From a virus, in the IMG/VR virus record IMGVR_UViG_3300045988_147571: a stretch of DNA of 64,000 nucleotides. One strand, 5' to 3'. The position numbers were made by a program, and so were the translations under genes. The notes beneath the pieces were generated by a model, which was not told the DNA's origin, searched no databases, and saw only the letters and a list, made by a program, of their open reading frames with translations. Below, in pieces: positions 3,652 to 29,137 of this stretch (its first letter is position 1; each line of letters begins with the position of its first letter).

Positions 3652-4035
3652 TCAGATAATCTGTAAGTTGTTATCACCAATAAGCCATGCAGAATCTAAA
3701 ATAAAATTTTCATATGAGTCACCGTTTTCACTCCAGAATTCATCTGATCCAACAGTCCAATCACCCAATGTTCCATCATTAAAACTATTATATAAATAAT
3801 CTGCTACATCTTCTAAAAACGCATCTACAGCCTTATCATAATCTCCTTTTCTTATTGACTCTTCTACATCCGGCTCAAGATCAATCCATTTATGCTGTTC
3901 AATCAAAAAAGATTTAGCGTTGTCTTTTACTTTCAGCAGTGAGTTTTTAATGTCTGTCAATGTTGCATCTTTCTTTTTTGCAATAATATAACTTGAAGAC
4001 GAACTATTAGTGACAAATCCTCTTCTTATTTTCAT
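3652..4035 (-). CDS. GFVTNSSSSS-motif family protein, copy 1
   Basis: N-terminus MKIRRGFVTNSSSSSYII. Paralogous N-terminus shared with 4035-4430, 26825-27592, 28410-28868 and 28865-29137. Confidence 0.7.
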   Translation of the reverse strand: MKIRRGFVTNSSSSSYIIAKKKDATLTDIKNSLLKVKDNAKSFLIEQHKWIDLEPDVEESIRKGDYDKAVDAFLEDVADYLYNSFNDGTLGDWTVGSDEFWSENGDSYENFILDSAWLIGDNNLQII

Positions 4036-4430
4036 TAACCATCTCTCCCTTCTCCTTCGGCAACTTTTATATCAGCAAATCCATTTACTTTCGTAATAGC
4101 ATTTATCGCTTCACTCATAGAGAAATCATAATCATATATAGCATCACCCCATTCATCATAATAGGCATCATTACGGTCCTCAATTACGATATATTCTCCA
4201 TCAGGGTGCTTTTCTAAAATGTCATCAACCCCATAAATGACCGCTCCGCACCAACTAGCACCAAGCTCACCGGACCAGTTTCTTTCATCATTCACACCAG
4301 TAACATCTAATACATCAAGATTGAACTGATCAATTATCTTCTGAGCTTTTTCTTTGTCAGCAATTCTTGCAAAGCAGATAATAAAACTACTAGAACTTGA
4401 ATTGGTAACAAATCCTTTTCGTATTTTCAT
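4035..4430 (-). CDS. GFVTNSSSSS-motif family protein, copy 2
   Basis: N-terminus MKIRKGFVTNSSSSSFII. TAATG stop/start overlap with copy 1. Confidence 0.7.
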   Translation of the reverse strand: MKIRKGFVTNSSSSSFIICFARIADKEKAQKIIDQFNLDVLDVTGVNDERNWSGELGASWCGAVIYGVDDILEKHPDGEYIVIEDRNDAYYDEWGDAIYDYDFSMSEAINAITKVNGFADIKVAEGEGRDG

Positions 4431-4442
4431 ATACCCTCCTTC

Positions 4443-4631
4443 CTAGTGGCTTTCGCCACTAGACTTCTTATTCCACTTAGGTTTATCGATTTTCATTTTA
4501 TTTACATGTTTAGAAAAAGCAAGTGACTTCTTAGACTGCTTCATCCCATGTTTAACCATTCTAGTATGTTTTTTCCCGTTTTTGTCTACTTTTGTCTCAT
4601 ACTCTTTGTTCCAGGAATTCTTTGATCTCAT
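4443..4631 (-). CDS. small Lys-rich basic protein
   Basis: 62-aa ORF, very basic (many K/H), packed tightly between its neighbours. Confidence 0.45.
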   Translation of the reverse strand: MRSKNSWNKEYETKVDKNGKKHTRMVKHGMKQSKKSLAFSKHVNKMKIDKPKWNKKSSGESH

Positions 4632-4632
4632 A

Positions 4633-5778
4633 TTACATGTCCTCCATTGAATAAATCACTTTTTCTAAGCTTCTTTTTGATTTGAAACACTTCTTAAGTA
4701 AACACCACATAATTGCTTTTTCAGTGTCATCTTCATCTTCCCACTCATTTAAAACCACAGAAGTCTGTGTCCCATCTTTGAATCCTACAGTAGTTCTAAT
4801 TTTCCCTGTAGCAATATCTTTTGTTCTTCCTACAAATGAAACATCTTCTTTTGACAGGGTTTTATAAACCTGTTTATCAAATTCATCTTTAGGTGCAATA
4901 TATACATCAACACCTAAACCGTCTTTAATCTGACGTTCACAGCTTCTAAGCTCTTTATATAATGTGTGTCTACGATTGATAGTTTCTTGAGCTTTCTCTA
5001 AGGCTATAGCGATATCTTCTGGTGAGCAACATGTCATATAGTTATCCTCCTTGTAATTGAAATATGGCATTGGTTTCATTTTAAACTTATTTTTTGTATG
5101 TAAACGATCAATCCGTCTTTTAATTTCCGGATCATCGCAAATACCTGTACGAATATATCTATCTAATACTGCATAGGTAAATCCGAAGTTATCTTCATCT
5201 GATTTACCGCATAACCCATCTGATGGTGTTTTCTCTACATATTTTTTAGGCAGTCCTAAGTAATAACCAATTCTTTTTACTTCACTCTTTGTGAACTGTG
5301 CCAATGGAGCAAAGTCTCCTGCCGAGTCCCCATATCTGGTGGCGTATCCGATGTAATCCTCACTAAGGTTACAAGTATTAACTACTCTTCCATTATGTGA
5401 CTGTGATACTCCATACAGAGTGGCCATTCTTAGTCTAGGAGCGAGATTAATTAATGTCTGATCTGTTACATTAAATGCAGCATCAATTTGATCAATAATA
5501 TCATCATAAGCTGATCCAATATTAATAGTAAGATAATCAATGTTTAATACATGCTGGCAAATATCATAAGCCACACAAATATCATCCTGTTTATAATTTG
5601 GCATAATTACTCCAAGAACTTTGTCAGCTCCAACAGCTTCCACACATAACTTAGCAGCTACTAAAGAATCAACGCCACCGGAAATACCTACTATGAGATT
5701 ACATCCAGGACCATTCTCTTCTCTCCAATCTCTAATCCACTGAATACAATCATTTGTTGCTTTTTCTACATTAAACAT
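4633..5778 (-). CDS. nadE: NH3-dependent NAD+ synthetase with ~130-aa C-terminal extension
   Basis: GISGGVDSLVAAKL PP-loop (SGGxDS). Also YGDSAGDFAPL and EKTPSDGL motifs typical of NadE. At 381 aa it is longer than the ~270 aa usual for NadE. Confidence 0.85.
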   Translation of the reverse strand: MFNVEKATNDCIQWIRDWREENGPGCNLIVGISGGVDSLVAAKLCVEAVGADKVLGVIMPNYKQDDICVAYDICQHVLNIDYLTINIGSAYDDIIDQIDAAFNVTDQTLINLAPRLRMATLYGVSQSHNGRVVNTCNLSEDYIGYATRYGDSAGDFAPLAQFTKSEVKRIGYYLGLPKKYVEKTPSDGLCGKSDEDNFGFTYAVLDRYIRTGICDDPEIKRRIDRLHTKNKFKMKPMPYFNYKEDNYMTCCSPEDIAIALEKAQETINRRHTLYKELRSCERQIKDGLGVDVYIAPKDEFDKQVYKTLSKEDVSFVGRTKDIATGKIRTTVGFKDGTQTSVVLNEWEDEDDTEKAIMWCLLKKCFKSKRSLEKVIYSMEDM

Positions 5779-6271
5779 TCTGCTCCTCCAATTTCCACAG
5801 TTCTACTTTAAAACTACTTAATTCTTCTTCTATAATCTTATAAACCACTTCCCAGTCTGCTCCTCCTCTTCCGCAGCCTATTTTGTATGGGAGTGCAATG
5901 GTTGTCTTGTAAGGCCTGTTATCAGCATCAAACCAATAAACAGGTATTTGTTGTCGAATAAAATTTAATCCTTCTCGAAAAGCTTTAACATCAGTATATT
6001 GTTTCCCATCATATCCATACATGTCTTGTGCAAATAAGGATAATATTCCTTGATTTTTCCTTCTGATAAAGTACTCGTCATATGTTCCAAGAAGTAATTC
6101 TGGATTAAACTCACGTAATTTACAGACGTTTCTATAATGTATATAAATACCTTCGTCATAATCTCTTAATGCTTTAGCAACTCCAGTATTCATTTCTCCT
6201 TGGCAATTAACTTGATGAATTATATAGTCGGTCTGTGCATCTACAATGTTACCTTCAATAATTTTAATCAT
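5771..6271 (-). CDS. macro domain protein (ADP-ribose binding/hydrolase family)
   Basis: MIKIIEGNIVDAQTDYIIHQVNCQGEMNTGVAKAL resembles the macro-domain N-terminus (GDIT..DAIVN.AN....GGV..AI). I prefer the internal ATG at 6269-6271 because upstream codons would overlap gene 6282-6689. Its 3' end overlaps the nadE start by 8 nt. Confidence 0.75.
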   Translation of the reverse strand: MIKIIEGNIVDAQTDYIIHQVNCQGEMNTGVAKALRDYDEGIYIHYRNVCKLREFNPELLLGTYDEYFIRRKNQGILSLFAQDMYGYDGKQYTDVKAFREGLNFIRQQIPVYWFDADNRPYKTTIALPYKIGCGRGGADWEVVYKIIEEELSSFKVELWKLEEQNV

Positions 6272-6281
6272 AAATCTTTTC

Positions 6282-6689
6282 CTATAAATCCTGAAATGTA
6301 AACTTCTCGCCACAGGAGCAAATCACTTCTCCAATAGTTCCTATTGATGTTGGTGTAAAGCACCATGTAAGAGAACCGCCTATGCAACCATGTCCCATTG
6401 CTCTCTGTTTAGAAGTTTTCAGACCATGTTTCTCAGCATCATGTTTTAATTCCCACTCTGTGATTTTCTCTTGTTCTTTTTCTGAAATTGGAAATCCTCT
6501 ATATAAATCATCTTTTGCTTTTTTCAGTTCTGCTTCCATTCTCTGCATTTCTGAGTCTTTATAATGCTCATCTTTGAGCTTCTTGTTTTCTTCTCCTAAG
6601 TATTTAATTCGTTTTTCATAAGTATCTACTTTATCAATAATCCCCTGACAAAGATCTGAAACTGAATCCGTAAAATATGTTTTTCCCAT
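6282..6689 (-). CDS. hypothetical protein (coiled-coil N-half, Cys/His-rich C-half)
   Basis: 135-aa ORF. No motif recognised. Confidence 0.55.
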   Translation of the reverse strand: MGKTYFTDSVSDLCQGIIDKVDTYEKRIKYLGEENKKLKDEHYKDSEMQRMEAELKKAKDDLYRGFPISEKEQEKITEWELKHDAEKHGLKTSKQRAMGHGCIGGSLTWCFTPTSIGTIGEVICSCGEKFTFQDL

Positions 6690-6696
6690 TTTCGTT

Positions 6697-8154
6697 TCAC
6701 CTATTTAACCTTTCTCTAATGTCCTCAAATGTTTCTTTATTACAAACTTTCCCATCTACAAATACAGTTCTTAATGCTCCGTCACGAAATACATCATTAT
6801 ATCCATCTTTACACTGTAATTCTCCATTATCATCGTAATATATACGACAACACCCCTTATGAGATTTTTTCAAATGGCTCGTATCGGTTTTTGGATCTTT
6901 ATAAATCATAATTGGCTCGCCATTAACAATTCCATATGTAGCTTTCATAGCAATACCAAACATATCCCTAGTCACAACAACCATATATCCATCAGACTCT
7001 ACAACTGCTGAGAAGCAAAATGCTCCGACTCCGAATACGATATTGTTTGCAGCAAATCCTTTTCCTTTAAGTTCTTCCCATACCTGTTCTACATTATTAA
7101 GAGTACATCCATCTCCATAGATAATTCCAATGTGCGGGTCAAGCACTTTATATCCCTTGCTATTTACTGTTCCGCCAAATGTATTCCAAAGCTTTTCAAT
7201 TGTCTGTACAGCAATTTCTACCATATCTCCGGAATCTGGACGGACCAGAAGTTTGCCATTATGCTGCATGATTTCTTTTTTACAAGCTGGAAGAATATTA
7301 TTAATCATATTCCAGTAATCGTAAGTGTCAGACACCATACTAAAAGATGCATTAGGATATAGTTCTGTAAGCAATCTCTTTACAAATGTAATTTCATCAC
7401 CGTCTACTGCATAATTTGAAGCCATGCAGCTATGCTCTGTTGATACAGCACCAATTCCAATCTTTTCAGTCCAGCAACAAGCATCATAATATGTATCTAT
7501 ATAATCAATAGCAGGAATTGTGCTTGTCTTATCAAATGATAATAACCAAGCAGATGAACATCTTACGGCCTCTTCCATACAAGACATTCCTCTCATACCA
7601 AAGTCTGAGCAGGCCATTTCAGGTCTTAAAAAGTCATCACAGGTCATTTTATAGTAGTCATTTGCAAGTTCTCTATACATATGACCAATTGTTGCATGAG
7701 CACATGGTTTCCAGAGTTCAACCTGCAGGATACATTCGATCCACTGTACTACCCAAGCAAAATCTGGATGTGTGTTTGTAATTTCGATACATGGGATACC
7801 CATTGGTACTAATGTTCCCTCCGGGATAGCACGTATCTGAATTGGAAGATAACCTAATTTATGAAGTTTCATAATAGGCCCTAGGTCATAACTGTTTCCT
7901 AACTGTATATCCATACTGTATTTATATGTATGTTCAACTTCTGCTGCTGTTAATTCAAAAAAGTTTTTATTAAAATAATCAATTAGATATTCTTCAATAA
8001 ATGCCTGTAGACCAAAGAATACCATTTTGTTCTGATTCTTAAGCATTGATCTTCGTGGGGTCCAGTAAGATACTAATTTCGTCAGTCCTTTCGGATAGAT
8101 TTTATTATGGATCTGTTTATATGTGTCTGAGAGCAAAATTGCCATTGTATTCAT
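6697..8154 (-). CDS. nicotinamide phosphoribosyltransferase-like enzyme (NadV/NAMPT family; candidate Namat of NARP1)
   Basis: 485 aa. N-terminal LLSDTYKQIHNKIYPKG parallels the NAMPT TDSYK..H motif. Length and overall pattern are typical of type II PRTases. Confidence 0.85.
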   Translation of the reverse strand: MNTMAILLSDTYKQIHNKIYPKGLTKLVSYWTPRRSMLKNQNKMVFFGLQAFIEEYLIDYFNKNFFELTAAEVEHTYKYSMDIQLGNSYDLGPIMKLHKLGYLPIQIRAIPEGTLVPMGIPCIEITNTHPDFAWVVQWIECILQVELWKPCAHATIGHMYRELANDYYKMTCDDFLRPEMACSDFGMRGMSCMEEAVRCSSAWLLSFDKTSTIPAIDYIDTYYDACCWTEKIGIGAVSTEHSCMASNYAVDGDEITFVKRLLTELYPNASFSMVSDTYDYWNMINNILPACKKEIMQHNGKLLVRPDSGDMVEIAVQTIEKLWNTFGGTVNSKGYKVLDPHIGIIYGDGCTLNNVEQVWEELKGKGFAANNIVFGVGAFCFSAVVESDGYMVVVTRDMFGIAMKATYGIVNGEPIMIYKDPKTDTSHLKKSHKGCCRIYYDDNGELQCKDGYNDVFRDGALRTVFVDGKVCNKETFEDIRERLNR

Positions 8155-8522
8155 TATTTTTTATTCTCCTCTTTGTCGTTTACAACTTTGTCAATCTGGT
8201 CAGTAATGTAATCCACTACATCTTTTCCAGTTTTGCCAATTGTTTGAATATTATCTGGTGTGATTTCATTTACAACTGCCATCGTATATATTGTTTCTGT
8301 ATTAGGTGTCATGATTGTAATGATAGTCATTACAACACATCCGATAATTAATTTGCTAATAGTTTTTCTAAACTTAAATGGTTCGTTATATCCGGCTAAT
8401 CCGGCAAAGAAAGCACATATAGCAATAGATCCACATATTCCTGCGATCACTCCAAAAAATGTCGTTAAATTATCTGCTCTACTAGCGAAATAAATCAACC
8501 AAGGACTAATAATCGGTTTCAT
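8154..8522 (-). CDS. small membrane protein
   Basis: 122 aa with hydrophobic spans (FFGVIAGICGSIAICAFFAGLAG, LIIGCVVMTIITIM). Stop/start abuts the NAMPT-like gene at 8154. Confidence 0.6.
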   Translation of the reverse strand: MKPIISPWLIYFASRADNLTTFFGVIAGICGSIAICAFFAGLAGYNEPFKFRKTISKLIIGCVVMTIITIMTPNTETIYTMAVVNEITPDNIQTIGKTGKDVVDYITDQIDKVVNDKEENKK

Positions 8523-8535
8523 ATTTTTATCTCCC

Positions 8536-8925
8536 TTATAACTTTCCTATCAAACAACTCCAAGTAAAAGCAATCTGAAACATATGAGTTATCTGATCTT
8601 GAATTAGATTAATTTTCTTTTTATTGGCTTTCATATCATCTACTAACATATGTATCAATAAATTCATAACCAATAATAAAGGATTCCATTTACCGCCAAT
8701 AATCATAAGCGCAATTGTTGGTGGTAACATAATCATAAATGACCAACTAAAGCTATGCATAAACAACGCTGCTAAATAATCATATTTATATAATTTTCCT
8801 GGTGAATTCTTTTCCCACCATGATTTTTGTTTTGCAGATGCCAACCATCCTTGTAAATAATAATCGTCTACAATGTGGCAGAAAATCATTGTAAATAAGA
8901 TAAATATTTTATATCCAATATTCAT
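8536..8925 (-). CDS. membrane protein (DUF3307-like, from memory)
   Basis: 129 aa and multi-span hydrophobic. HIVDDYYLQ resembles the H..DF.LQ motif of DUF3307. Confidence 0.5.
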   Translation of the reverse strand: MNIGYKIFILFTMIFCHIVDDYYLQGWLASAKQKSWWEKNSPGKLYKYDYLAALFMHSFSWSFMIMLPPTIALMIIGGKWNPLLLVMNLLIHMLVDDMKANKKKINLIQDQITHMFQIAFTWSCLIGKL

Positions 8926-8958
8926 ATTTCACCTCCATGAAATCGAGAATTTATCGGA

Positions 8959-9141
8959 TTAAACTACATCATCTACTTCCAGGTCTGTTGTTTCGATAGC
9001 AATTTTAATAGTTGGCTTGTCTATTGCTTCACTGTTTGTTATTCTACTATACGATACAGTAATAAGATCTGATTCAGTATTAAATCTTTCAGCTACAACA
9101 CTTACAATATCTTTCTCATTTAATTCGTAAATTGTTTTCAT
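8959..9141 (-). CDS. hypothetical protein
   Basis: 60-aa ORF on the coding strand. Confidence 0.45.
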   Translation of the reverse strand: MKTIYELNEKDIVSVVAERFNTESDLITVSYSRITNSEAIDKPTIKIAIETTDLEVDDVV

Positions 9142-9241
9142 TTTTTATGTTCTCCTTTTATAATCATATCTCCAAGCTACAATATCTATATCGCTGCGCC
9201 ATTCGTCACATGAGTTAGGTTCTTCTATAAGTAACATAACT

Positions 9242-9541
9242 TTACTCATTATTATTTTCTCCTGTAATTTCTCTCAAACAATCATTCCAACCGATATCAT
9301 AACTTGGTGACTTTCCATTTCTTTCAAAGTGAAAACAACCCAACTTCTCTGGCAAGGGCTTCAGCAGGCGCAGTAGGCACCATCCTGGCCTCTCTTTAAG
9401 CTCTTTGATTTCATGTCTATTCAGCCTGCAATGCGATGTGGCATACTTTTTATTTATGCCTTCACCGATGTATTCACTTTCGCAAAACTGACAGCCGGCA
9501 CATATTCTTGGCTCGTTTATTAGTAATACTAATTTATTCAT
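9242..9541 (-). CDS. Cys-rich small protein (CxxC...RPxWC family)
   Basis: CAGCQFCE ... HCRL ... ERPGWCLL. Same pattern as 36370-36621 (CGKCKF ... WCRA ... IPNWCPL). Confidence 0.55.
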   Translation of the reverse strand: MNKLVLLINEPRICAGCQFCESEYIGEGINKKYATSHCRLNRHEIKELKERPGWCLLRLLKPLPEKLGCFHFERNGKSPSYDIGWNDCLREITGENNNE

Positions 9542-9556
9542 TTTCTCCTACTTCTT

Positions 9557-10363
9557 TTATCTAAACCTCTCAACAAGTTCAATCTTAGGACTTTCCAGAT
9601 TTGTCAAGATCGTATCTGTCGTATAAATCTTCTCAATCAGTCCATTGTTTTTCAGAAGCTCTCCATCATAAACAGTATTCTCACAATGAGTTACATAGAG
9701 ATAAATCTTACCTACACCGGCCTCTTTCAACTTTTTAGCACTATAATAAAAAGTACCTCCTTTGCTGCAGATATCATCTACAATAAGGATATCTTTACCT
9801 GGCAGTTGATTGATTTCTCCAGATAAATCTAAACCTTTAATTTCTCCGGTCTCCCAATCTCTATTCTTGATACCAAAAGTATATGGAAGATGTACTGCTG
9901 AAGAATATCTTTTCATAGCTCCAGCATCCGGATAAAACATCATAAGATTATTACTAGCAATCTTCTTAACAGCAGATTCAATCATTCGATTCGGGGATTC
10001 TACATGTACTTTATTAAATAATGCGGCAGATACATCAGAGTGAGGATCTAAAACTTCTACCTTATCAAAATGCAATGAATTAATAGTCTGAGCGAAGTAT
10101 TTTAAAGTGAATATCTCATTTTCTTTTTTAACTCGATCCATACGAGCATCTGGGACATAAGGCATGTATAAGTAAGGCATTACTTTATGATCCCAACAGT
10201 ATCGTGCAATATAAACTACTGCTGCGAATTCTTCCATTGAATCAAAAAACCATTCAATAATACTGCTATGCCATCCTCCAATAGATGATGGAATATTCTT
10301 AAATAAAAATGTTCCATCCGGATATTTATCAAGTTTGATTTCTACACCGTTTAATTTAATCAT
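9557..10363 (-). CDS. ribose-phosphate pyrophosphokinase-like protein (Prs family; candidate ADPR-pyrophosphokinase Adps of NARP1)
   Basis: 268 aa. ILIVDDICSKGGTFYYSAKKLKEAG is a PRPP-binding loop. VLDPHSDV and FYPDAGAMKRY parallel the Prs motifs DLH and SPD.G. Shorter than canonical Prs. Confidence 0.75.
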   Translation of the reverse strand: MIKLNGVEIKLDKYPDGTFLFKNIPSSIGGWHSSIIEWFFDSMEEFAAVVYIARYCWDHKVMPYLYMPYVPDARMDRVKKENEIFTLKYFAQTINSLHFDKVEVLDPHSDVSAALFNKVHVESPNRMIESAVKKIASNNLMMFYPDAGAMKRYSSAVHLPYTFGIKNRDWETGEIKGLDLSGEINQLPGKDILIVDDICSKGGTFYYSAKKLKEAGVGKIYLYVTHCENTVYDGELLKNNGLIEKIYTTDTILTNLESPKIELVERFR

Positions 10364-10718: not shown

Positions 10719-10719
10719 T

Positions 10720-11253: not shown

Positions 11254-11272
11254 TTTATACTTCCTCTTGTTT

Positions 11273-11470
11273 TTATTTTTCTCTATTCATTATTTCTTTT
11301 ACTTTACTTTGTGTATCATAATTCAGCATTTTAATTGCATGTTTTACATCGTTTAAAGCCTTATGCCTAAATGTGTTTTTCTGTTGGTCGTTCATACCTC
11401 TTTCTATTCTATTACCCACAATTTCTAAAAGATCTGTATTGCTAAATATATCAATATCAATCATTTTCAT
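11273..11470 (-). CDS. hypothetical protein
   Basis: 65-aa ORF on the coding strand. Confidence 0.45.
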   Translation of the reverse strand: MKMIDIDIFSNTDLLEIVGNRIERGMNDQQKNTFRHKALNDVKHAIKMLNYDTQSKVKEIMNREK

Positions 11471-11490
11471 ATAGATTTCCTCATATTAAC

Positions 11491-11637: not shown

Positions 11638-11656
11638 ATAACCGCTTGATAATATT

Positions 11657-14677: not shown

Positions 14678-15778
14678 TTACACTGTATAATGCAATTCTC
14701 TACTTTTTGTTCTTACAAAAGTCATATATGCTGGTTTCATTGCTTCGATAATCTTTTTATCTTCATCATCATTGTAGTAATTATCACTTTCTAATTTAAT
14801 ATCATTGCCAGATACATAAATGATGCCTTTCTTATGATCAAACTCGCAATCAAGAACCTTACAAGAAGCATCTACATAAGTTCCTTTAAAGCAGAATTCC
14901 GGTTCAATCCTTGCACTTTTATCAAAGAAATCAATGGCCAATTTTGTGGTTGCCTCAGAACCATCTTCAAGATGTAGAGTGACTTCATACATAATACTGT
15001 TTAAATTAATAATATTTAGATCTTTGATTGCTGTTTCAAAAGGTTCTCCAAAGTTTAATTCAAATGCAATTGCTCTTAAGCAGTCATAGTTTAAATCTAC
15101 TTTGTGAGCAAAAGAAATTACTTTTTCAATTTCGCTGTAATACTGTTTATCCAACTTATCTTCTAAATACTCTGTAATTTCAGCATCTGACGGATACTCA
15201 AATCTAAAGTGATAGTGGAACCTTCCAGGTCTGTTTACTAAATAACTATTTAACGAGTTGAGGTCGTTACAAGTAATCACAAACATTTTCTTCCCTTGGG
15301 ACAATCCATCAAACAATGTAAGCATTTCTGTTTGAGGATCTGCCATGCCATCAGCAGCTTTAATACTACCAAATGTTTTATCAAATTCATCAAACAGTAT
15401 CATTACTTCCTGTTCAATTTCTTCTATGAAACTTGCAATTCCAGGAATATACGTGTCTACAATGATAACTGGTAAACCAACTTTTGTCGCTTCCACAGCC
15501 AATGTCTTTGCAAACAATGATTTGCCGATTCCTTTATTGCCTGACAGGATAACGCCAAGGTTCTTTTCTGCTTTTGGGAAAGCTTTAAGAACTTTTGCAA
15601 CCTTACTCATATGTACTCCGTAGGTTTTTTCTTTGATTTCTATGTCTGCATATTTTTCTAAAAAGAAACCAGAATTCTTTTGAAACCTCACAACATAATT
15701 CTGAGCCGGAAGCTTGTCAAAAGTTTCTAATGAATCGTCGTAAGTTCTAAATGTGTTTCCTACCTTAATAATTCTCAT
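14678..15778 (-). CDS. AAA+ ATPase
   Basis: Walker A GVILSGNKGIGKSLFAKT, Walker B VMILFDEFDK. 366 aa. Confidence 0.8.
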   Translation of the reverse strand: MRIIKVGNTFRTYDDSLETFDKLPAQNYVVRFQKNSGFFLEKYADIEIKEKTYGVHMSKVAKVLKAFPKAEKNLGVILSGNKGIGKSLFAKTLAVEATKVGLPVIIVDTYIPGIASFIEEIEQEVMILFDEFDKTFGSIKAADGMADPQTEMLTLFDGLSQGKKMFVITCNDLNSLNSYLVNRPGRFHYHFRFEYPSDAEITEYLEDKLDKQYYSEIEKVISFAHKVDLNYDCLRAIAFELNFGEPFETAIKDLNIINLNSIMYEVTLHLEDGSEATTKLAIDFFDKSARIEPEFCFKGTYVDASCKVLDCEFDHKKGIIYVSGNDIKLESDNYYNDDEDKKIIEAMKPAYMTFVRTKSRELHYTV

Positions 15779-17473: not shown

Positions 17474-17527
17474 AGTATACCATAGTCATTTCACCTTGTC
17501 AACACTTTTTTTACAAACTTGTTTATA
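17474..17527 (-). promoter_or_regulatory. second tandem promoter with the same upstream element, embedded in the ligA 3' end
   Basis: rc reads AAACAAGTTTGTAAAAAAAGTG TTGACA (17497-17502) aggtgaaatgactatgg (17 nt) TATACT (17474-17479). Confidence 0.65.
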
Positions 17528-19536
17528 AATTCTTTTTCTGAAATAATCGGGATACCAAGCTGCATAGCTTTCACATTCTTGCTACTCTTTGACAATGTAT
17601 CATTATTAATAAGGTAGTTAGTTTTTTTAGTTACTGATCCTGTGACTTTACCTCCAAGAGACTCTATTTTTTCTACTAGAGCTGCTCTATTGGCAAACTC
17701 GGTGAGTGTCCCAGTAATACAGAATATTGCCCCATTCAAACCATCTTTTACAGTCTCCTGAGAAATTTCTTCAAACTGGAATTCCGCAGCAAGCTCAGTT
17801 ATGTATCTTTGATTTTCTTCAAAATAATTTTTCAAAGAAGAAGCTTTCGCAAAACCAAAGTCTTCCAAACATGTAAAATCATACTGAGAATCCATATCTT
17901 CAATGAAACTATCAAAAGCTGTCTTTAATCCTTTTTCTCTTGCTCTCTTCTCTTCAACAGTGTTTAGCTGCTTACTAACACTTCGACCGATTAAATGTAT
18001 GGACAGCCCATAAAGGAATTTAGGCAGAGTTGTCTTGCGGCATTTTTCTATTGATTCCAGGATTTTATCAACTTTTTTTGCTCCTAGCCCTTGTAATGTC
18101 ACTAACATTCCCCGGCAGTCTTTTAGATAAAATAAGTCTAAAGGCCCTTTAATAAATTCTTTCTCTATTAATAGACTCAGAGTAGATTTAGAAAGCCCTG
18201 TAATATCATGTGCTTCTTTGCTTACAAAAGTACATAATTCACCAAGAAGTTTCCCTTTACATTCAAGGTTCATGCACTGAAGCTCTTCTGTCTCATTTTC
18301 ACCTGTAATTTTTACATGACCACCACAAATAGGGCACTTGTCAGGCACAGTAAACAATTTGTCACCGTTTCTGGTCAAATTCTCTGCAATCTGCGGAATG
18401 ATCATGTTTGCCTTATATACCGTAATCGTATCTCCTACTGACAGTTCATAACTTTTGAAAATACTCACATTATGTAAGCTAGCTCTTTCAACAATAGTAT
18501 CATCTATTTCAACCGGATCAAAAACTGCCACAGGTGTCAACTGTCCAGTCTTTCCCATGCTCCATTCCACATCTCTAATTACTGTTTCAAACTTATCATC
18601 TGCAAATTTATACGCCAATTGTGATCGAACATGATGTGATGTGTTTCCTAAGCTTTCACTATAATCAATGTCATCATATGAAAATACGATTCCATCAATA
18701 GGAACATCTTTTTCTCTTGCGATTTCTCTAAGTTTTTTAATATTCTCTTCAATATTATCAACTTTTACCCAAGGGACCACTTCAAATCCTAGCAGATCTA
18801 ATATCTGTAATCTTTTCATGAAACTATTTCCATCTATTCCACGAACGGCCTTCCAAGCAACGAACTTGATTTTTCTTTCTTTTGTAACGGAGTTATCAAG
18901 CTGTCTAACAGAGCCAGCAGTTAAATTTCTGATATTCTTAATACCATTATCTTTAATATATTTTTCTAATTCTTCACCAAAAAGTCCCTTTCTTTCTCCA
19001 TCTTTTTTCAGATCAATATCTTTTAGCTCTTTAAGATGAGTATAATGATGGATCTCCATGACAGCTTCCCCATCAATTACCACTTCATCTCTATAAGGAA
19101 TTTTCTTTGGAACATTTACAAAACTGTTTACTGTATGTAAAACATTTTCTCCGATGATTCCATTCCCCCTAGTTTCTGCAGCAACCAATTTACCATCTAT
19201 ATACTTTACTGAAATAGTAAGTCCATCCATTTTTAACATAGCCAATCCTGGCAAACCATTCATAAAACTTTCAACTTCATTTATATCTTTTGTTTTGTCT
19301 AAGGACAACATTGGATGATCATGTTCGACTTTTTCTAACTCACTAACTGTTTCTGAGCCAACATTGATAGTGGGACTGTTGGCTAAAATAATACCTGTAA
19401 CTTTCTCAAGTTCTTTAAGTCGATCATATTTTTTATCATATTCATAATCAGAAATTAGAGAAGTATCTTCCATATAATACGCATGAGCATATATGTTTAA
19501 TTCTTCCACTAATTCACGCATTTCTTTTAAAAGCAC
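17491..19536 (-). CDS. ligA: NAD+-dependent DNA ligase
   Basis: 681 aa. Adenylation motif LKMDGLTISV (KxDG), Zn finger CPICGGHV...C.NLEC, C-terminal BRCT-like GAIFCITGTL. Confidence 0.92.
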   Translation of the reverse strand: MLLKEMRELVEELNIYAHAYYMEDTSLISDYEYDKKYDRLKELEKVTGIILANSPTINVGSETVSELEKVEHDHPMLSLDKTKDINEVESFMNGLPGLAMLKMDGLTISVKYIDGKLVAAETRGNGIIGENVLHTVNSFVNVPKKIPYRDEVVIDGEAVMEIHHYTHLKELKDIDLKKDGERKGLFGEELEKYIKDNGIKNIRNLTAGSVRQLDNSVTKERKIKFVAWKAVRGIDGNSFMKRLQILDLLGFEVVPWVKVDNIEENIKKLREIAREKDVPIDGIVFSYDDIDYSESLGNTSHHVRSQLAYKFADDKFETVIRDVEWSMGKTGQLTPVAVFDPVEIDDTIVERASLHNVSIFKSYELSVGDTITVYKANMIIPQIAENLTRNGDKLFTVPDKCPICGGHVKITGENETEELQCMNLECKGKLLGELCTFVSKEAHDITGLSKSTLSLLIEKEFIKGPLDLFYLKDCRGMLVTLQGLGAKKVDKILESIEKCRKTTLPKFLYGLSIHLIGRSVSKQLNTVEEKRAREKGLKTAFDSFIEDMDSQYDFTCLEDFGFAKASSLKNYFEENQRYITELAAEFQFEEISQETVKDGLNGAIFCITGTLTEFANRAALVEKIESLGGKVTGSVTKKTNYLINNDTLSKSSKNVKAMQLGIPIISEKEFINKFVKKVLTR

Positions 19537-22005: not shown

Positions 22006-22045
22006 TTTGCAACCTCCTTTCTTGTATTATATCATTGTTTAGAAC

Positions 22046-23053: not shown

Positions 23054-23054
23054 C

Positions 23055-23756
23055 TCACCATCTAAATTTGTGATCTAATCCATCTCCACGAATTCCATGT
23101 TTCTCTCTTTCTTCAAGAACTTCCCTTCTAATCTTATTGTGTTTTGAACGAAAATATACCATTGCAAATAACCAAATCATTATTATCATACTCCAACCAG
23201 ACGGACCGGCTAATAAGAATATGAATGATATTATCCCTAATACAATTAAAGTTTTAATATCAGATTCATCCCATACACTGACATAATTATCTGATTTAGA
23301 TGCAGTTTCACTTTGTGCTTTTTGCCACGTCCATGGATTAGGAAGTGGTATTGGTGCATAGTCATCCCTCACTATCGCAACTGGAAAAGGATGAGCCTCT
23401 TCCATTTCAAAATCCAATGAATCTACTTTCACCCAGATGTGATAATTCGGATGATATGACCAAATTTTATTTCCAGTTCTTACTACTTGAAAGGTTCCTT
23501 GTTGCCCAGGTCTCAATGGTTTTTCTGTTAATTCATTTGCTTCTTGTACTAAATAGAGATGAAAACCATATGTATCATCATATGTATCATGATTAATTTT
23601 TGAAGTTAAAAATAGTCCTGTATTAGGAACCATATTTTCAAGATTTGCTGAAATGTTATGCTGCTCTTTATATAACTCTTCTATAGTTTTATCAGACATA
23701 GTATATGTCCAGCCTCGTTGCATATCTTTTACTTTAACTTTCTTTCCCAAATTCAC
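23055..23756 (-). CDS. hypothetical protein with C-terminal transmembrane segments
   Basis: 233 aa. LIVLGIISFIFLLAGPSGWSMIIMIWLFAMVYF near the C-terminus. Confidence 0.6.
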   Translation of the reverse strand: MNLGKKVKVKDMQRGWTYTMSDKTIEELYKEQHNISANLENMVPNTGLFLTSKINHDTYDDTYGFHLYLVQEANELTEKPLRPGQQGTFQVVRTGNKIWSYHPNYHIWVKVDSLDFEMEEAHPFPVAIVRDDYAPIPLPNPWTWQKAQSETASKSDNYVSVWDESDIKTLIVLGIISFIFLLAGPSGWSMIIMIWLFAMVYFRSKHNKIRREVLEEREKHGIRGDGLDHKFRW

Positions 23757-23825
23757 CTTACCTTTCCTTGGTACAAAAAGATGGCTATTTACAGTTTATA
23801 GCGTATCTACATGCTTTTCAATATA

Positions 23826-24221
23826 TCATGAGATTTCTTCTGTATAGCAGCCACTATCATAACAGTTGTTTGGAGCATCTCTTTTCCCTTCAAAAATATC
23901 ATTTCTTACAATTTCTTCCGCTTCTTCTTTGTTAGCTGCCTCTACTTCATACCCCTTACTATATGCTTCATAGTAAGTAACTATGTATTTTTTTAGCCCC
24001 ATCTGTTGTTCTTCTTTACATTCTTTGTACAGATCATCAACAATATTATAATTTTTATTGCTTTTCCCATTGATTTCTATTAATTTGTCATCTAACATAG
24101 GAATATGTTCGTTGCTACTTTCTATATCTAACACAAATTCTCTTTTTGAATTCCATTCATAGTTTATATATCTTCCATCACAATTAATTACAGTTATTTT
24201 TAACATAGTGATTTCCTCCAA
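23826..24221 (-). CDS. hypothetical protein
   Basis: 131-aa ORF on the coding strand. Confidence 0.55.
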   Translation of the reverse strand: MEEITMLKITVINCDGRYINYEWNSKREFVLDIESSNEHIPMLDDKLIEINGKSNKNYNIVDDLYKECKEEQQMGLKKYIVTYYEAYSKGYEVEAANKEEAEEIVRNDIFEGKRDAPNNCYDSGCYTEEIS

Positions 24222-24242
24222 TTATACTCGCAATAGTATCTC

Positions 24243-24431
24243 TTATGTAACTAACCCAAATTCTTTAATTAGTCTCTGAAAGACCATCCGGTTACATTTC
24301 TTATAGGCAATAGATAATGTCTTCTTTACACCTTCTTTCTTATAAATTGAATGCCCACCAGTACAATGGTCTAATTCCCAGCCATTCTTTAGAATAATTC
24401 TCTCAACCTCTCTTCTGTTATAAGTTTTCAT
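24243..24431 (-). CDS. hicA: HicA-family mRNA interferase toxin
   Basis: 62 aa. RREVERIILKNGWELDHCTGGHSIYKK matches the HicA pattern (..GW......GSH....). Confidence 0.75.
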   Translation of the reverse strand: MKTYNRREVERIILKNGWELDHCTGGHSIYKKEGVKKTLSIAYKKCNRMVFQRLIKEFGLVT

Positions 24432-24586
24432 TTATTCACCACCTTGTTGTCTATCTCTACAATAATTTTCTCAGCGCCTTGTCTTAATGCTGCAGCAAAA
24501 GCATCTCTGAATATTTTTGTTTCATATTCTTCCAATGTACAGCTGATTGTCACTGTTTTTTCTGATGGAGTAGTTTTATATACCAC
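24428..24586 (-). CDS. 52-aa protein coupled to hicA (putative antitoxin; below ORF-track cutoff)
   Basis: GTG start 7 nt after GAGGAGG. My translation: VVYKTTPSEKTVTISCTLEEYETKIFRDAFAAALRQGAEKIIVEIDNKVVNK. Its stop overlaps the hicA ATG (ATGA). Confidence 0.55.
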   Translation of the reverse strand: MVYKTTPSEKTVTISCTLEEYETKIFRDAFAAALRQGAEKIIVEIDNKVVNK

Positions 24587-24711
24587 TAATCAACCTCCTC
24601 TGGTATGTCCCACTCAAAATTATCTCTAACCTGTTCTAAAATATCTTTATCAGCTGCCATAGCGGAGCAGCAAAGACAAATCTGGATAGTTTTCTGAACC
24701 CGTTTTCCCAT
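24586..24711 (-). CDS. small Cys-rich ORF coupled to the hicA operon (minimal ATG version)
   Basis: MGKRVQKTIQICLCCSAMAADKDILEQVRDNFEWDIPEEVD. Its stop overlaps the downstream GTG (TAGTG). The frame stays open upstream to 24780 and there encodes a first CxxC (SCWYCG), but has no ATG/GTG/TTG. Confidence 0.35.
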   Translation of the reverse strand: MGKRVQKTIQICLCCSAMAADKDILEQVRDNFEWDIPEEVD

Positions 24712-24782
24712 TTTCTTTCCATAATATGTGCACTTTTCAAGAGGTACTCCATCATTGATAGTACCGCAATACCAACAACTTC

Positions 24783-25268
24783 CTATATAACATCACCTGC
24801 CTTGAACTGAATAATATCGTGCATATGCCACTGACAACCATCATCAACACACGAATCAAATAAATTAACTTCAAATACATAATCATCAGTTATATCAATG
24901 TCATAGTCATTTGCTATTCTGGCTGTAGAGTCTAACATTTGGTTTCTACACTCTTCTAAAGTACCAATTTTTTCTACATAGAATCCGACACCATCATAAG
25001 CATGATGATAAATACAGAGATGATCTCCGTCTTCTATTTCGATTTCATGAATAGTATGGACATAGAATTCTCCGTTACTGCATGAGTAGTCAATACGCAT
25101 AATCTGATCTTTAGAACCATCTACATTTCTGCAATCTTGCTTGCCATTCATCCCATAAGATAAATTATTTACAATCCATTCCTGAGCCCTATGAACAGTT
25201 TCAAAAAAGTAAAAGTATGGTTCCCTGTAATGTTCACTATCTAATGTACATAGTAAATATATCTTCAT
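24783..25268 (-). CDS. hypothetical protein
   Basis: ORF 24783-25289. The internal ATG at 25268 forms an ATGA overlap with the upstream stop and follows GAAGGTGA. Confidence 0.55.
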   Translation of the reverse strand: MKIYLLCTLDSEHYREPYFYFFETVHRAQEWIVNNLSYGMNGKQDCRNVDGSKDQIMRIDYSCSNGEFYVHTIHEIEIEDGDHLCIYHHAYDGVGFYVEKIGTLEECRNQMLDSTARIANDYDIDITDDYVFEVNLFDSCVDDGCQWHMHDIIQFKAGDVI

Positions 25269-25846
25269 TTTTTCACCTTCGTCTTCCACTGTTTTCTTCT
25301 CTTACTCTGCATCTTCCAACCAGAAATTTTATTACATTTATAATCCCATGAGTCTATTTTTCTTTTTGGTTTTATAGGTTTGAGAGTAATACCATATTCA
25401 TCTTTTATATCTCTTATTTCTTCCGGTGTAATGCTTTTTCGCTGATCAGATGTTAATTTCACCCAATGTTCATTCCAGCCTCCTCCACGATGACTATAAA
25501 TCCATGTTGCTGGTCTTTTCTTTTTATATTGATCTGTAAGCTCACGAAAATTCCTTACATTACCATCATCATCTACAATCAGATATCTATGATGTTTTTT
25601 TGCCATCATAAATTCAAATCTGTCGTATATGTATTCATCTTCAAAGTAATTAAATTTATTATAAAATTGTTTATCATATTTTCTTTTGAAATATATAAAC
25701 ACTTCTTTGGTGCCTGTCAGACATCCGAGGTATTCCCATGGCAGCCATCTATGTTTAGCCCATCTACAATGATATTCAACCATTTTTGTTCTCTGTACGT
25801 AAATATGGTATTTTCTCATAATCATTCTCCTATTAGCCCCTCTCAA
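25265..25846 (-). CDS. hypothetical basic protein
   Basis: 193-aa ORF on the coding strand. Confidence 0.55.
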   Translation of the reverse strand: MRGANRRMIMRKYHIYVQRTKMVEYHCRWAKHRWLPWEYLGCLTGTKEVFIYFKRKYDKQFYNKFNYFEDEYIYDRFEFMMAKKHHRYLIVDDDGNVRNFRELTDQYKKKRPATWIYSHRGGGWNEHWVKLTSDQRKSITPEEIRDIKDEYGITLKPIKPKRKIDSWDYKCNKISGWKMQSKRRKQWKTKVKK

Positions 25847-25864
25847 GAAGAGAGAGGCTATTTT

Positions 25865-26806
25865 TTATATAACGCAAAGAAATTTATGAGTATCTTTTTC
25901 ATACTTATATATTTTCTTTGTAAGAAAATTTTTTCTAGGTGTAGCTTCCTCCAATGTATCCTGCAAGATTATTGATAAATCTACTGCATCAACATCATCA
26001 GCCTTATGAATCATCACCTCATGTACACTGGTAAACACTAAATACAAATCTGAATCCAATACATTAGCAAAGCGTTCAGCCACGCCGGGATAAAATATAG
26101 CTACGGCACCGTTTATTTTCTTTGCTGTAGTTAAACAATTTCCAATAAAATCTTGGCTAATTGCTTCTTCTGTACCGGGACTCATAAACTCTTCTCCTTC
26201 ATATTCCGGATTAAAGATCATCTGCTCCCATCTGTAAATTCTCGGTGGATACATACGTTCTGTATTTCTTAATGCTTCTTCCAGAATATTGCCTTCACTT
26301 AAGGTCAAACCATCTTCTTTCCATTTCTCTACTACACATTTAAAAATCTTAGTGCTCATAATGTTTCCATCATTTTCAGATACCTTCATATATAATACCT
26401 GAACAATGTCACCAATTCTTTTATAAATAGCATTACTCAATTCTTTAGAATTATCATCATAATTAAGCAGCCTTATAAAAAGAGAATCTTTAACAGTTTC
26501 GTAGTTCCAAATTTTCTTTGTTTTTTCATAAGAATTTTGTCCTTGTAACTGTCTAATGTCTCTTACAGTACTATCAAGAATGGTGTCAAACGATGTTCCA
26601 TTTAAGAATTCTCTAAAAAGCTCTTTTGTATGTATTCCACAGACCTCCCAGGCATCATCATGCTCTGCAAACTTCACCAGCAGTCTGTCTCCTGTCGGAG
26701 AAAATCTATCTCCATCTTTTGAAAATTCTATATTCTCAATAGGAATGTTGATAGCTGCACTTATTTTATTTTTAAGTTCTTCCACAAACATTTCATAGTT
26801 CATCAT
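25865..26806 (-). CDS. hypothetical protein (DUF5688-like, from memory); paralog of 48761-49255
   Basis: 313 aa. The C-terminal GAVAIFYPGVAERFANVLDSDLYLVFTSVHEVMIHK aligns with GAIALFYPGAMERFAQFIGSFFVIPSSTEEVILMP of 48761-49255. Confidence 0.6.
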   Translation of the reverse strand: MMNYEMFVEELKNKISAAINIPIENIEFSKDGDRFSPTGDRLLVKFAEHDDAWEVCGIHTKELFREFLNGTSFDTILDSTVRDIRQLQGQNSYEKTKKIWNYETVKDSLFIRLLNYDDNSKELSNAIYKRIGDIVQVLYMKVSENDGNIMSTKIFKCVVEKWKEDGLTLSEGNILEEALRNTERMYPPRIYRWEQMIFNPEYEGEEFMSPGTEEAISQDFIGNCLTTAKKINGAVAIFYPGVAERFANVLDSDLYLVFTSVHEVMIHKADDVDAVDLSIILQDTLEEATPRKNFLTKKIYKYEKDTHKFLCVI

Positions 26807-26824
26807 AACTAATCCCTCTTTTTC

Positions 26825-27592
26825 TTAACCCATATGATTACATGAATATTCTGATATTCCTTCTAATCTTTCAACTACATAGTCAGGCAAATATCCACAT
26901 TCTGAACATACACAAATTTTACCAAGAACATATAGGCATACCTTATCTTCTGGGATGTCTTTCCCTTTGAACAATTCAGCCATAGAATCACATTCTTCGC
27001 TTCTATCTTTCTCACAATAGTATTGTGCAGGACATCTGTTACATCCATAAACAACACCTTCAAAATTGGGAAAATACCAATTTAATATATCTGACTCAAT
27101 TCCATTACCGTTATCTCCTGAGCACTCTATCATTTGTGTACTGAAATCAAGAGGGACATACGGATCATTGCAGGAAAAGTCTCTTATATAAAAAGGTGCA
27201 TGAACTCCGATTTCCATTTTAGAAATCCAAAAATTGACATAGTCTTTGTATGTCTCACAGTTGATCCAATCAATTACTCCCGGTAATTCTTCATAATGGT
27301 CAAGGCCAAACATCAATCTCAACTGAGTGTCAGCAATTTTTGTACAGTCCCACGATTTCTTTGAGTGTAAATATTTACCTCTTTTTTCAGTAACAACTTC
27401 AAACACATCAGGATAATATTCTTCTACATAGCTATACATTTCAGAGCAAGATTTATAATATTGTTTATAAAATTCTTTTATTTCTTGATATGCCGAATCA
27501 ATAGTTACTGTGTTGTCGTTTGCTTTGCCAATAATAAAACTTGAAGAACTACTATTGGTTACAAACCCGTTACGAATCTTCAATGGTATCAC
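26825..27592 (-). CDS. GFVTNSSSSS-motif family protein, copy 3 (long, Cys-rich C-terminus)
   Basis: MIPLKIRNGFVTNSSSSSFIIGK. The C-terminal part has several CxxC pairs. Confidence 0.7.
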   Translation of the reverse strand: MIPLKIRNGFVTNSSSSSFIIGKANDNTVTIDSAYQEIKEFYKQYYKSCSEMYSYVEEYYPDVFEVVTEKRGKYLHSKKSWDCTKIADTQLRLMFGLDHYEELPGVIDWINCETYKDYVNFWISKMEIGVHAPFYIRDFSCNDPYVPLDFSTQMIECSGDNGNGIESDILNWYFPNFEGVVYGCNRCPAQYYCEKDRSEECDSMAELFKGKDIPEDKVCLYVLGKICVCSECGYLPDYVVERLEGISEYSCNHMG

Positions 27593-28130
27593 CTCTTCCT
27601 ATATCATATGCTCTTTTACAGTACTTCCAATCATCACACAACGATCCATCCATTTTCTTGTAGCAGCCTTTACACAGGTACTCTCTACTTTCTATGATTT
27701 TATTAAACTGCTCATAGTTCGCATAAAATTCTTTCCGGTAAGTTCCATCTTCATCTTCAATAGTACCTAAATAACCACCATCTACTTCATCAAGAATACT
27801 AGAATCAAAATATGGATACAGAAAATCATAAATATCTTGTCCTAAGTCTTCACCTAAATACATATACCCTTTCATACAGAAGCTAGCAGTTAGGAACCAC
27901 ATTCCTTCTGAAAATTCTAATGTGTAAGTTGGATATAAAACTCTATAATGATTCATCCACTTGGACTCTTTTAGTTCTTTATGTTGTAACAATGGTTTTA
28001 TATCTCTATCACGGCTCCGCTCACTTGTAATAATTGACAAATCATGTAATAACTCATCTGGAAGACTCCTTTTCAAGGCAAAAATCAGTCTTCCCTCATA
28101 ATAATTTCCCATCTTCCTGCACCCTTTCAA
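27570..28130 (-). CDS. hypothetical protein
   Basis: 186-aa ORF on the coding strand. Confidence 0.55.
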   Translation of the reverse strand: MKGCRKMGNYYEGRLIFALKRSLPDELLHDLSIITSERSRDRDIKPLLQHKELKESKWMNHYRVLYPTYTLEFSEGMWFLTASFCMKGYMYLGEDLGQDIYDFLYPYFDSSILDEVDGGYLGTIEDEDGTYRKEFYANYEQFNKIIESREYLCKGCYKKMDGSLCDDWKYCKRAYDIGRGDTIEDS

Positions 28131-28401
28131 ATATATAAATAGAGTTTAAAGTTGTCACCTTCAATTTGTTTATATTTTCACTTATTGAAATAATATAGCT
28201 CGTAAACAGATATAATCCTTCGATAGGTGTCCCATCTGATTCCCGAACATACCTAATAACCATAGATCTATCTACTTGGAGCTTATTCGAATCAATTTCA
28301 ACAACTCGGCCAATTCGTTTAGGATAGCGTCCATCTGTTCTTTCCGTTCCAAAATCTCCACAAGTACCAGTATGTAGAATCTGTTTTATTTTATATAACA
28401 T
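28096..28401 (-). CDS. hypothetical protein
   Basis: 101-aa ORF on the coding strand. Confidence 0.5.
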   Translation of the reverse strand: MLYKIKQILHTGTCGDFGTERTDGRYPKRIGRVVEIDSNKLQVDRSMVIRYVRESDGTPIEGLYLFTSYIISISENINKLKVTTLNSIYIFERVQEDGKLL

Positions 28402-28409
28402 AGCGCCTC

Positions 28410-28868
28410 CTAATGATGACTAATAGCAGCAAGACAACAATTCATATTCGGTGCAACATGATGTTCAAGGGTTGAATACCTAAAACCATCCTCGTCTGAA
28501 TAATTAATCTCTACAAATACAGAGTACCCTTGCATATCTTCCTCTAACTCAGACACCCTATCTGTTATTGCTTTATTGAGCTTATTCTGGAACTCTTTCG
28601 TTTCTCGTATTTCGAACTTCTTATCATAAGGTACATCAAGTCTATACTCTAAATCCCAGAGAGTATCATAATAAATTTCTTTTGAGTACCCTTTCAAAAC
28701 TTCATCTTTAGTCAATTTTGTAGCTCTCATTACATCTTCCAGGACTTCATCAAAATATTCTTTGAGATCCTCTGCTTCCAGTTCTTTTTTGATATTCTCT
28801 TCGCTTGTAAAACCAAGAATGAAACTACTACTGCTGCTATTAGTTACGAATCCTTTTCTAATTTTCAT
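28410..28868 (-). CDS. GFVTNSSSSS-motif family protein, copy 4
   Basis: I prefer the start MKIRKGFVTNSSSSSFILGF at 28868, which forms an ATGA overlap with the upstream stop. Confidence 0.7.
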   Translation of the reverse strand: MKIRKGFVTNSSSSSFILGFTSEENIKKELEAEDLKEYFDEVLEDVMRATKLTKDEVLKGYSKEIYYDTLWDLEYRLDVPYDKKFEIRETKEFQNKLNKAITDRVSELEEDMQGYSVFVEINYSDEDGFRYSTLEHHVAPNMNCCLAAISHH

Positions 28869-29137
28869 GACCAGTCCTCCCATTCAACAATATCTCTGTT
28901 AATACCAATTAGCCTTAAAAACTTATTCATATCTCCATTGTCCATACATGTGAAGCCTCTAATTTCAAAATTTGTTTCATTAATATCCCAACAGTCGTCA
29001 AATTCATTCATTCCAACCTCTTTGGCAGCTTCAAAGTAATTTTTAATCTTTTCAATCTGATTGTCTGTTAAATCACTTCTAGCAATAGTAAAACTGGATG
29101 AAGAACTATTGGTTACAAAGCCTATTCTTAATTTCAT
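28865..29137 (-). CDS. GFVTNSSSSS-motif family protein, copy 5 (short)
   Basis: MKLRIGFVTNSSSSSFTIAR. 90 aa. Confidence 0.7.
   Translation of the reverse strand: MKLRIGFVTNSSSSSFTIARSDLTDNQIEKIKNYFEAAKEVGMNEFDDCWDINETNFEIRGFTCMDNGDMNKFLRLIGINRDIVEWEDWS

Follow-up and report, generated by a model that had tools for sequence, protein, structure and literature searches.

The 64,000-nucleotide viral contig IMGVR_UViG_3300045988_147571 from IMG/VR (referred to here, at its full length, as the window) carries five minus-strand open reading frames (ORFs), g1 to g5, that open with the motif MK[IL]RxGFVTNSSSSS[FY]. In a six-frame scan of the 64 kb, the core NSSSS was found five times only, each time at the start of one of these ORFs, which confirmed the five-fold shared N-terminal motif reported in a first-pass annotation of this DNA. 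Two of the genes are g1 (3652..4035; 127 amino acids, beginning MKIRRGFVTNSSSSSY..., subfamily c11) and g2 (4035..4430; 131 amino acids, MKIRKGFVTNSSSSSFIICFARIAD...GEGRDG, subfamily c5). The other three are g3 (26825..27583; 252 amino acids from a TTG start, subfamily c3), g4 (28410..28868; 152 amino acids, subfamily c0, the most abundant among the loci examined), and g5 (28865..29137; 90 amino acids, beginning MKLRIGFVTNSSSSSFTIARSDLT..., subfamily c1). The stop of g2 overlaps the start of g1 through TAATG and the stop of g5 overlaps the start of g4 through ATGA, giving two translationally coupled pairs, and a DNA alignment placed a GGAG-type ribosome-binding site ahead of all five starts. 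Upstream of g5-g4-g3, also on the minus strand, lies a gene for a radical S-adenosylmethionine (SAM)/SPASM enzyme (32181..33245; 354 amino acids from the ATG at 33245, with the longest ORF starting from a TTG at 33263).

Alignment of g1 to g5 showed that 14 of the first 15 residues are identical, while the rest of the proteins share 29-39% identity overall; an identity of 14 residues occurring five times in 64 kb is beyond chance. A peptide form of the motif with Gly at position 6 is MKIRKGFVTNSSSSSFILGF. Since the Ser and Gly codons of the motif vary from copy to copy (AGT, AGC, and TCN mixed), conservation acts on the protein and does not reflect recent gene conversion, and a repeat or regulatory element at the DNA level was ruled out on the same grounds. 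All five ORFs were recovered on the minus strand at the positions previously given for them, except at one end: the start of g3, formerly set at GTG 27592, is most likely TTG 27583 (MKIRNGF), because the family motif is almost always at residue 1 and TTG starts are common (36/290). A possible sixth, degenerate copy at 48761-49255 was rejected, as the NSS there lies in another frame and the ORF is a relative of DUF5688 proteins. One Joint Genome Institute record calls P0071, an orthologue of g4, 'C-terminal processing protease CtpA/Prc', a name to which neither sequence nor model lends support. An orthologue of g2, annotated only as a hypothetical protein, occurs in Blautia wexlerae, which suggests a Lachnospiraceae host.

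Searches of Pfam, NCBIfam, and PADLOC returned no match for the five window proteins, Pfam had none for ten other motif subfamilies, and a PDB sequence search with the family profile was also without a match. All five proteins match PHROG 7397 over its first 22-91 positions, with E values of 5.5e-5 (g1), 3.8e-4 (g2), 1.6e-4 (g3), 1.5e-6 (g4), and 7.4e-3 (g5); PHROG 7397 is a sequence cluster with no assigned function, not a characterized system. Proteins of the family are named only 'hypothetical protein' in public databases, and our literature search found mention of neither the motif nor a phage SPASM maturase system. These domain, PDB-sequence, PHROG, and literature searches agree with the first-pass annotation, which had recognized no characterized family behind the motif and had proposed a hidden Markov model search; PHROG 7397 was all that such a search matched, with no Pfam, NCBIfam, or PDB domain.

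Among 1.84 billion representative proteins, 5,946 clusters (50% identity, E ≤ 1e-3) match a profile built from the five proteins, and the motif is at residue 1 in nearly all of the best 150 of these 5,946. Family members are typically about 150-160 or 210-280 amino acids long. In a set of 374 non-redundant members, for which N10, S11, S12, and S14 served as selection criteria, conservation of K2, R4, D/G6, F/Y7, V8, T9, S13, S15, and F/Y16 reaches 97-100%, and Asp occupies position 6 in 76% of the family. Among ~185,000 species-representative genomes, no more than six loci turned up, mostly on contigs of metagenome-assembled genomes; in IMG/VR, many motif loci are present, and the contigs that carry them span 20-416 kb. 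A word-indexed search with a 44-residue N-terminal profile recovered truncated or frameshifted orthologues only, and megablast and tblastn searches of the g4 region against cultured phages found nothing. Two familiar types of N-terminal or Gly-containing motif were considered and rejected. Unlike a Sec, Tat, or lipoprotein signal peptide, in which a hydrophobic h-region of 7-15 residues follows a basic n-region, the segment from residue 5 to residue 16 is polar (D/G, T, N, five Ser) and has neither a hydrophobic core nor a lipobox. A glycyl-radical protein (RVxG[FWY]) does not fit either, given the predominance of Asp at position 6 and the SPASM domain of the enzyme.

Across 82 related loci, motif genes form tandem arrays of 1-10 genes, mostly 3-6; the complete genome of Clostridiales bacterium CCNA10 has an array of five. 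With the motif removed, the bodies of the proteins fall into 23 BLAST groups, each present about once per locus, and no two of the five window genes share a group. At least 15 body groups have no BLAST similarity to one another, and profile-profile comparison with hhalign links only groups 0/13/14 and 10/11. Because the body groups are unrelated by BLAST, and nearly all are unrelated by profile comparison, the motif is evidently a shared module on heterologous bodies, rather than the best-kept part of one diverged domain. In one body group, a Zn-ribbon follows directly after the motif.

Neighbors of the motif genes were analyzed by clustering all ORFs of 83 loci. The only near-universal family other than the motif proteins themselves was a radical SAM/SPASM gene of ~355 codons, present at 78 of the 83 loci (49/53 distant and 29/30 close), and no other gene cluster was common to the window's lineage and the distant lineages. 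In the window, this sole universal neighbor is the gene at 32181-33245, outside the coordinates that the first-pass annotation gave for the motif genes. The enzyme gene always lies upstream of the motif array on the same strand, at a distance from the nearest motif gene that ranges from a 28-nt overlap to 3.4 kb (with one exception at 6.8 kb, locus L044), and it often overlaps the first gene of the array. A reverse scan starting from the enzyme gave 308 IMG/VR stretches, from which 79 loci were kept, and motif genes were found at 73 of them. Of the six enzyme loci without motif genes, five are cut short beyond the enzyme gene (four within ~0.5 kb, one at ~3.2 kb), and the sixth ends at a recombinase. 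A cassette of one enzyme with many protein partners is widespread in large phages.

Sequence comparisons identify the enzyme as a true member of the radical SAM/SPASM class. Pfam SPASM was matched above the gathering score (E 1e-6 to 1e-4) and Pfam Radical_SAM just below threshold (2.8e-5), and a PDB profile search returned PqqE (3e-6; SPASM region), SkfB (5e-5), and BtrN. In the enzyme alignment, C57 and C72-Y73 do not vary, a GGE-like SAM-binding motif is kept as GGxGD, and the SPASM motif SC-x2-C-x5-C-x3-C-P (CX2CX5CX3C) is present. The three-cysteine spacing varies within one orthologous family, being C-x-C-x3-C-x3-C in many members and C-x8-C-x6-C in the window, and the most distant enzymes keep the canonical CX3CX2C-Tyr (CKNKCPFCY in locus L077, CPNKCEFCY in locus L081). 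The NCBIfam models for MftC, PqqE, GeoRSP, and the W-cofactor maturase were matched weakly, with scores that fell far short of the cut-offs, and the model for the anaerobic sulfatase-maturating enzyme (anSME) reached only E=0.025 on one homologue.

Several features of individual homologues were also recorded. The SPASM region is shortened in the enzymes of L077 (8587-9585) and L081 (13079-14155). At two other loci, an insert of ~430 residues resembling an intein or homing endonuclease lies inside the radical SAM core (L049, 5007-7367, 786 amino acids; L053, 3972-6308, 778 amino acids). A distant homologue is encoded by Klebsiella phage KP15 (KP15_135, locus L162) and by 171 other cultured T4-like phages, Slopekvirus and related, with Enterobacteriaceae hosts; these homologues are mostly annotated as hypothetical.

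Position 6 of the motif links the arrays to the enzyme more closely. Within a genome, this position is uniform across paralogues: Gly throughout the window lineage, the five window copies included, Gly or Ser in L080 and L081, and Asp in nearly every other genome. Orthologues of g1 to g5 in other phages have Asp at this position and the codons differ between copies, so position 6 must have changed in parallel across all paralogues, as expected if they adapted to a single partner that they have in common. Exactly one column of the enzyme alignment tracks the split, with Lys in 15 Asp-type lineages and Gln in 3 Gly/Ser-type lineages. This column corresponds to Gln248 of the window enzyme, just before IGFDSC and six residues ahead of the first SPASM cysteine. 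Over 148 loci, the pairs were Lys with Asp at 80, Gln with Gly at 60, and Gln with Gly/Ser at one; a few further Lys enzymes had mixed arrays. No locus paired Gln with Asp, or Lys with an all-Gly array. The Gln lineages are not monophyletic, and at least two to three state changes are needed to account for them. A perfect two-state column was seen in only 4 of the 816 possible triples of the 18 enzymes. Because the charges are complementary, this pattern suggests that, close to the first cysteine of the auxiliary cluster, Lys248 is in contact with Asp6 when the motif is bound, a contact read from few events.

AlphaFold2 models built from family alignments were confident for both g4 (predicted local distance difference test [pLDDT] score 88.1, predicted template modeling score [pTM] 0.79) and g3 (pLDDT 85.4, pTM 0.85), with pLDDT below 50 only at residues 1-11 of g4 and 1-10 of g3. 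In both alignments, these low-scoring motif columns have full coverage and the highest conservation. In both models, strand 1 begins at S13, so that Ser 13-15 are inside it, and a C-terminal beta-alpha-beta unit is present. Foldseek searches of g4 and g3 against the PDB, and of g4 against BFVD, gave no match at E ≤ 0.001, and weak ferredoxin-like and HAD-like matches were not credible. Whether the motif is buried or exposed had been posed as a question for structure prediction, and the models answer it for g4 and g3, where residues 1-11 and 1-10, respectively, are predicted to be exposed. Because these residues are the only unpacked part of two otherwise confident models, the motif looks like an exposed linear element in need of a partner rather than a buried catalytic loop.

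The best-supported reading, which we consider somewhat probable, is that the upstream radical SAM/SPASM enzyme recognizes many putative protein substrates through the motif they share, and probably modifies them there as well. In this model, MK(I/V)R-x-(D/G)-(F/Y)-V-T-N-S-S-S-S-S-(F/Y) would be an exposed linear motif on otherwise unrelated small phage proteins. The enzyme, encoded upstream in the same direction of transcription, would recognize it and chemically modify a residue in or beside the T9-N10-Ser5 stretch. Candidate chemistries include conversion of Ser to formylglycine, as by anSME, epimerization, and formation of a cross-link. One maturase would thus serve many substrates, as in prochlorosin-type RiPP systems and in sulfatase maturation, but the substrates here may be 3-10 folded proteins of 90-260 amino acids per phage genome.

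Several observations weigh against this interpretation. The covariation comprises two or three independent state changes only, and it is evidence of a shared partner rather than of catalysis. Most of the known substrates of SPASM enzymes are short peptides instead of folded proteins. A domain search of the enzyme did not detect a PqqD-like domain (the RiPP recognition element, RiPP standing for ribosomally synthesized and post-translationally modified peptide), and no curated model predicts the chemistry, every NCBIfam match being far below its cut-off. T4-like Slopekvirus phages carry distant homologues of the enzyme (27% identity over 92%) that have no motif genes around them, which means that the wider enzyme clade is able to act on other targets. 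In the window lineage itself, the enzyme gene is ~3 kb from g5, and g1 and g2 lie ~28 kb away from it in the window.

Radical SAM/SPASM enzymes co-encoded with partners that carry a recognition sequence are already known. In PqqE-PqqA, MftC-MftA, SkfB-SkfA, and QhpD-QhpC, as here, a radical SAM core is joined to a SPASM CX2CX5CX3C motif, and the partner genes lie directly downstream and encode a strictly conserved short sequence. Our system differs from these in several ways: no curated family was matched and no PqqD-like domain was detected; the cluster-motif spacing is variable (C-x8-C-x6-C in the window); the phage-borne partners are 3-10 folded proteins (90-260 amino acids) per genome with unrelated bodies; and the conserved element stands at residue 1, without Cys, Tyr-Glu, or another known target pair. 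Nor does it resemble maturase systems with a short leader-core precursor peptide, as the partners are 90-260 residues long, the models of g4 and g3 are confidently folded, and residues 1-16 make up the conserved element.

As a precedent for serine as the target and for a substrate that is a protein rather than a peptide, anSME/AtsB, which acts on Ser- or Cys-type sulfatases, is the best. It too is a radical SAM enzyme with a SPASM domain, and the Ser that it modifies belongs to a short linear motif close to the N-terminus of a full-length protein that has not yet folded or is still folding. Its (C/S)-x-(P/A)-x-R motif is absent here, where the sequence is T-N-S-S-S-S-S-F with no Pro or Arg, and Pfam found no sulfatase domain. 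A second parallel is prochlorosin biosynthesis, in which one lanthipeptide synthetase, ProcM, acts on many precursors with a shared leader and diverse cores. Both systems combine one enzyme with many co-occurring partners that have a near-identical recognition segment and are otherwise hypervariable, but ProcM belongs to another enzyme class, the partners here are proteins, and the shared segment is 16 residues and may itself be the site of chemistry. What has not been described before in the literature we searched is the phage-borne form, the multiple unrelated protein partners, and the N-terminal Asn-Ser5 motif.

Among the alternatives, the one that survives best, although we regard it as unlikely, is that the motif is only a docking peptide for the enzyme. 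The motif proteins would then be interchangeable adaptor, specificity, or regulatory subunits that bring targets to the enzyme (nucleic acid, a metabolite, or a host protein) or are recruited by it, and would not be substrates. Linkage and covariation are as compatible with this arrangement as with modification, since they prove a shared partner and not catalysis on the motif; the diverse bodies, Zn-ribbon types included, would suit adaptors, and the Slopekvirus enzyme clade exists without motif genes. Against it, a docking strand would not require conservation as strict as that of the invariant T-N-S-S-S-S-S, and residue 248 stands six positions ahead of the first cysteine of the auxiliary cluster, a region around which solved SPASM enzymes presumably bind their substrates. 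We also know of no characterized SPASM enzyme with a set of adaptor subunits.

Less likely still, in our view, is that the motif forms part of an intrinsic active or ligand site, such as a Ser-rich loop that precedes strand 1, binds an anion or phosphate, and acts with the C-terminal His residues, in a very diverged enzyme superfamily to which the radical SAM gene would be only a pathway or operon neighbor. Some proteins do conserve acidic and His residues: D45, Y123-x-D125, E135-H136, P140, and a C-terminal SHH in g4-like proteins, and ...SECGY.P.YVV..L...S..CNHMG at the C-terminus of g3-like proteins, which end in NHMG. The two models also share strand 1 right after the motif, with Ser 13-15 inside it, and the C-terminal beta-alpha-beta unit. 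However, most subfamilies, g1, g2, and g5 included, are without this His/acidic set, their bodies are not detectably related, and no Pfam, PDB, or fold match to an enzyme was obtained. Residues 1-10 are unpacked in both models, and an intrinsic site gives no account of a concerted change at position 6 that tracks one residue of the enzyme. One of the two earlier proposals, a catalytic strand-loop of a single diverged enzyme family, is not supported, given the same unrelated bodies (BLAST and profiles) and the unpacked motif.

The other earlier proposal, a portable N-terminal tag on diverse cargo, came closer to the evidence, but the partner suggested for it was not supported. In its capsid version, which we now find improbable, the motif would be a virion-targeting or protease-processed leader of the T4 internal-protein type, cut by the ClpP-like protease encoded at 62936-63553. 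T4 internal proteins carry a short conserved N-terminal capsid-targeting tag on polymorphic, unrelated small proteins, much like a conserved tag on hypervariable bodies here; the tag is predicted to be exposed in g4 and g3, and the ClpP-like protein best matches head-maturation protease PHROGs. The protease gene, however, is ~34 kb away on the other strand, and no protease, nor any link to head genes, appears among the gene clusters common to arrays of the window's lineage and distant lineages. The arrays lie instead amid non-structural genes (nicotinamide adenine dinucleotide [NAD] salvage, ligase, anti-repressor-like, RlaP), and their conserved partner is a radical SAM enzyme, a link that a capsid leader leaves unaccounted for. 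The tag also runs directly into the first strand, whose start lies within the Ser run, and a protease cutting after the motif would therefore take away part of the core.

Equally doubtful is a set of paralogues assembling into one complex by strand addition of their N-termini, as homo- or hetero-oligomers and possibly covalently via Lys2 and Asn10: monomer models leave the best-conserved segment unpacked, several different, translationally coupled paralogues are always co-encoded, and a concerted position-6 change would also be expected of mutually interacting strands, but arrays of one or two genes exist, and both the one-to-one covariation with an enzyme residue and the obligatory enzyme gene would go unexplained.

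Returning to recognition and modification by the radical SAM/SPASM enzyme, we put forward a broader proposal more tentatively, as somewhat less than evenly probable. Large phages of gut Firmicutes and other bacteria may use a dedicated radical SAM/SPASM enzyme to install an undescribed modification in the N-terminal Asn-Ser5 stretch of 3-10 structurally unrelated proteins, which would amount to RiPP maturation on the scale of whole proteins. The 16-residue cassette would make any body a substrate, and the modified N-terminus would activate these proteins, for example as effectors against the host. If the enzyme does act chemically on the motif, this would represent a new radical SAM reaction on proteins with a simple, portable recognition cassette of 16 residues, of interest to enzymologists and possibly useful as a protein-tagging tool. 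It would also mean that phages use the RiPP-like logic of one enzyme and many substrates on folded proteins, and it would provide a first handle on thousands of uncharacterized phage proteins abundant in human-gut viromes. The covariation of Lys248 and Asp6 offers a directly testable contact.

Other genes of the window were noted alongside the arrays. Nearly all genes are on the minus strand up to ~51.7 kb and on the plus strand from ~53.5 kb, with a strand switch and region of divergent transcription at ~51.7-53.5 kb. An NAD synthase domain protein with a C-terminal extension of ~150 residues (4633-5778, minus strand) adjoins g1/g2, and a NAMPT-type nicotinamide phosphoribosyltransferase (6697-8154, minus strand) is encoded nearby; together, the two genes are a phage NAD-salvage module. 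Directly downstream of g1 is a gene for an RlaP-type nucleotidyltransferase (2130-3164, minus strand). In the Clostridiales CCNA10 locus (L005, 8002-11469), the array is followed by RNA-ligase-like, RlaP-like, and kinase-HD genes, and such RlaP and RNA-ligase neighbors may represent a recurring RNA-repair neighborhood.

The same minus-strand block of the window also encodes an AAA/STAND-like ATPase (14678-15778, minus strand) and an NAD-dependent DNA ligase with a BRCT domain (17491-19536, minus strand). The ClpP-family gene at 62936-63553, on the plus strand, is flanked by genes for PhoH and a DNA-binding protein, not by head genes. A DUF5688 protein of 313 amino acids (25865-26806, minus strand) abuts g3, and a shorter paralogue of 164 amino acids (48761-49255, minus strand) shares with it the segment ...A(I/V)A(I/L)FYPG..ERFA... 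(BLASTP E=1e-9).

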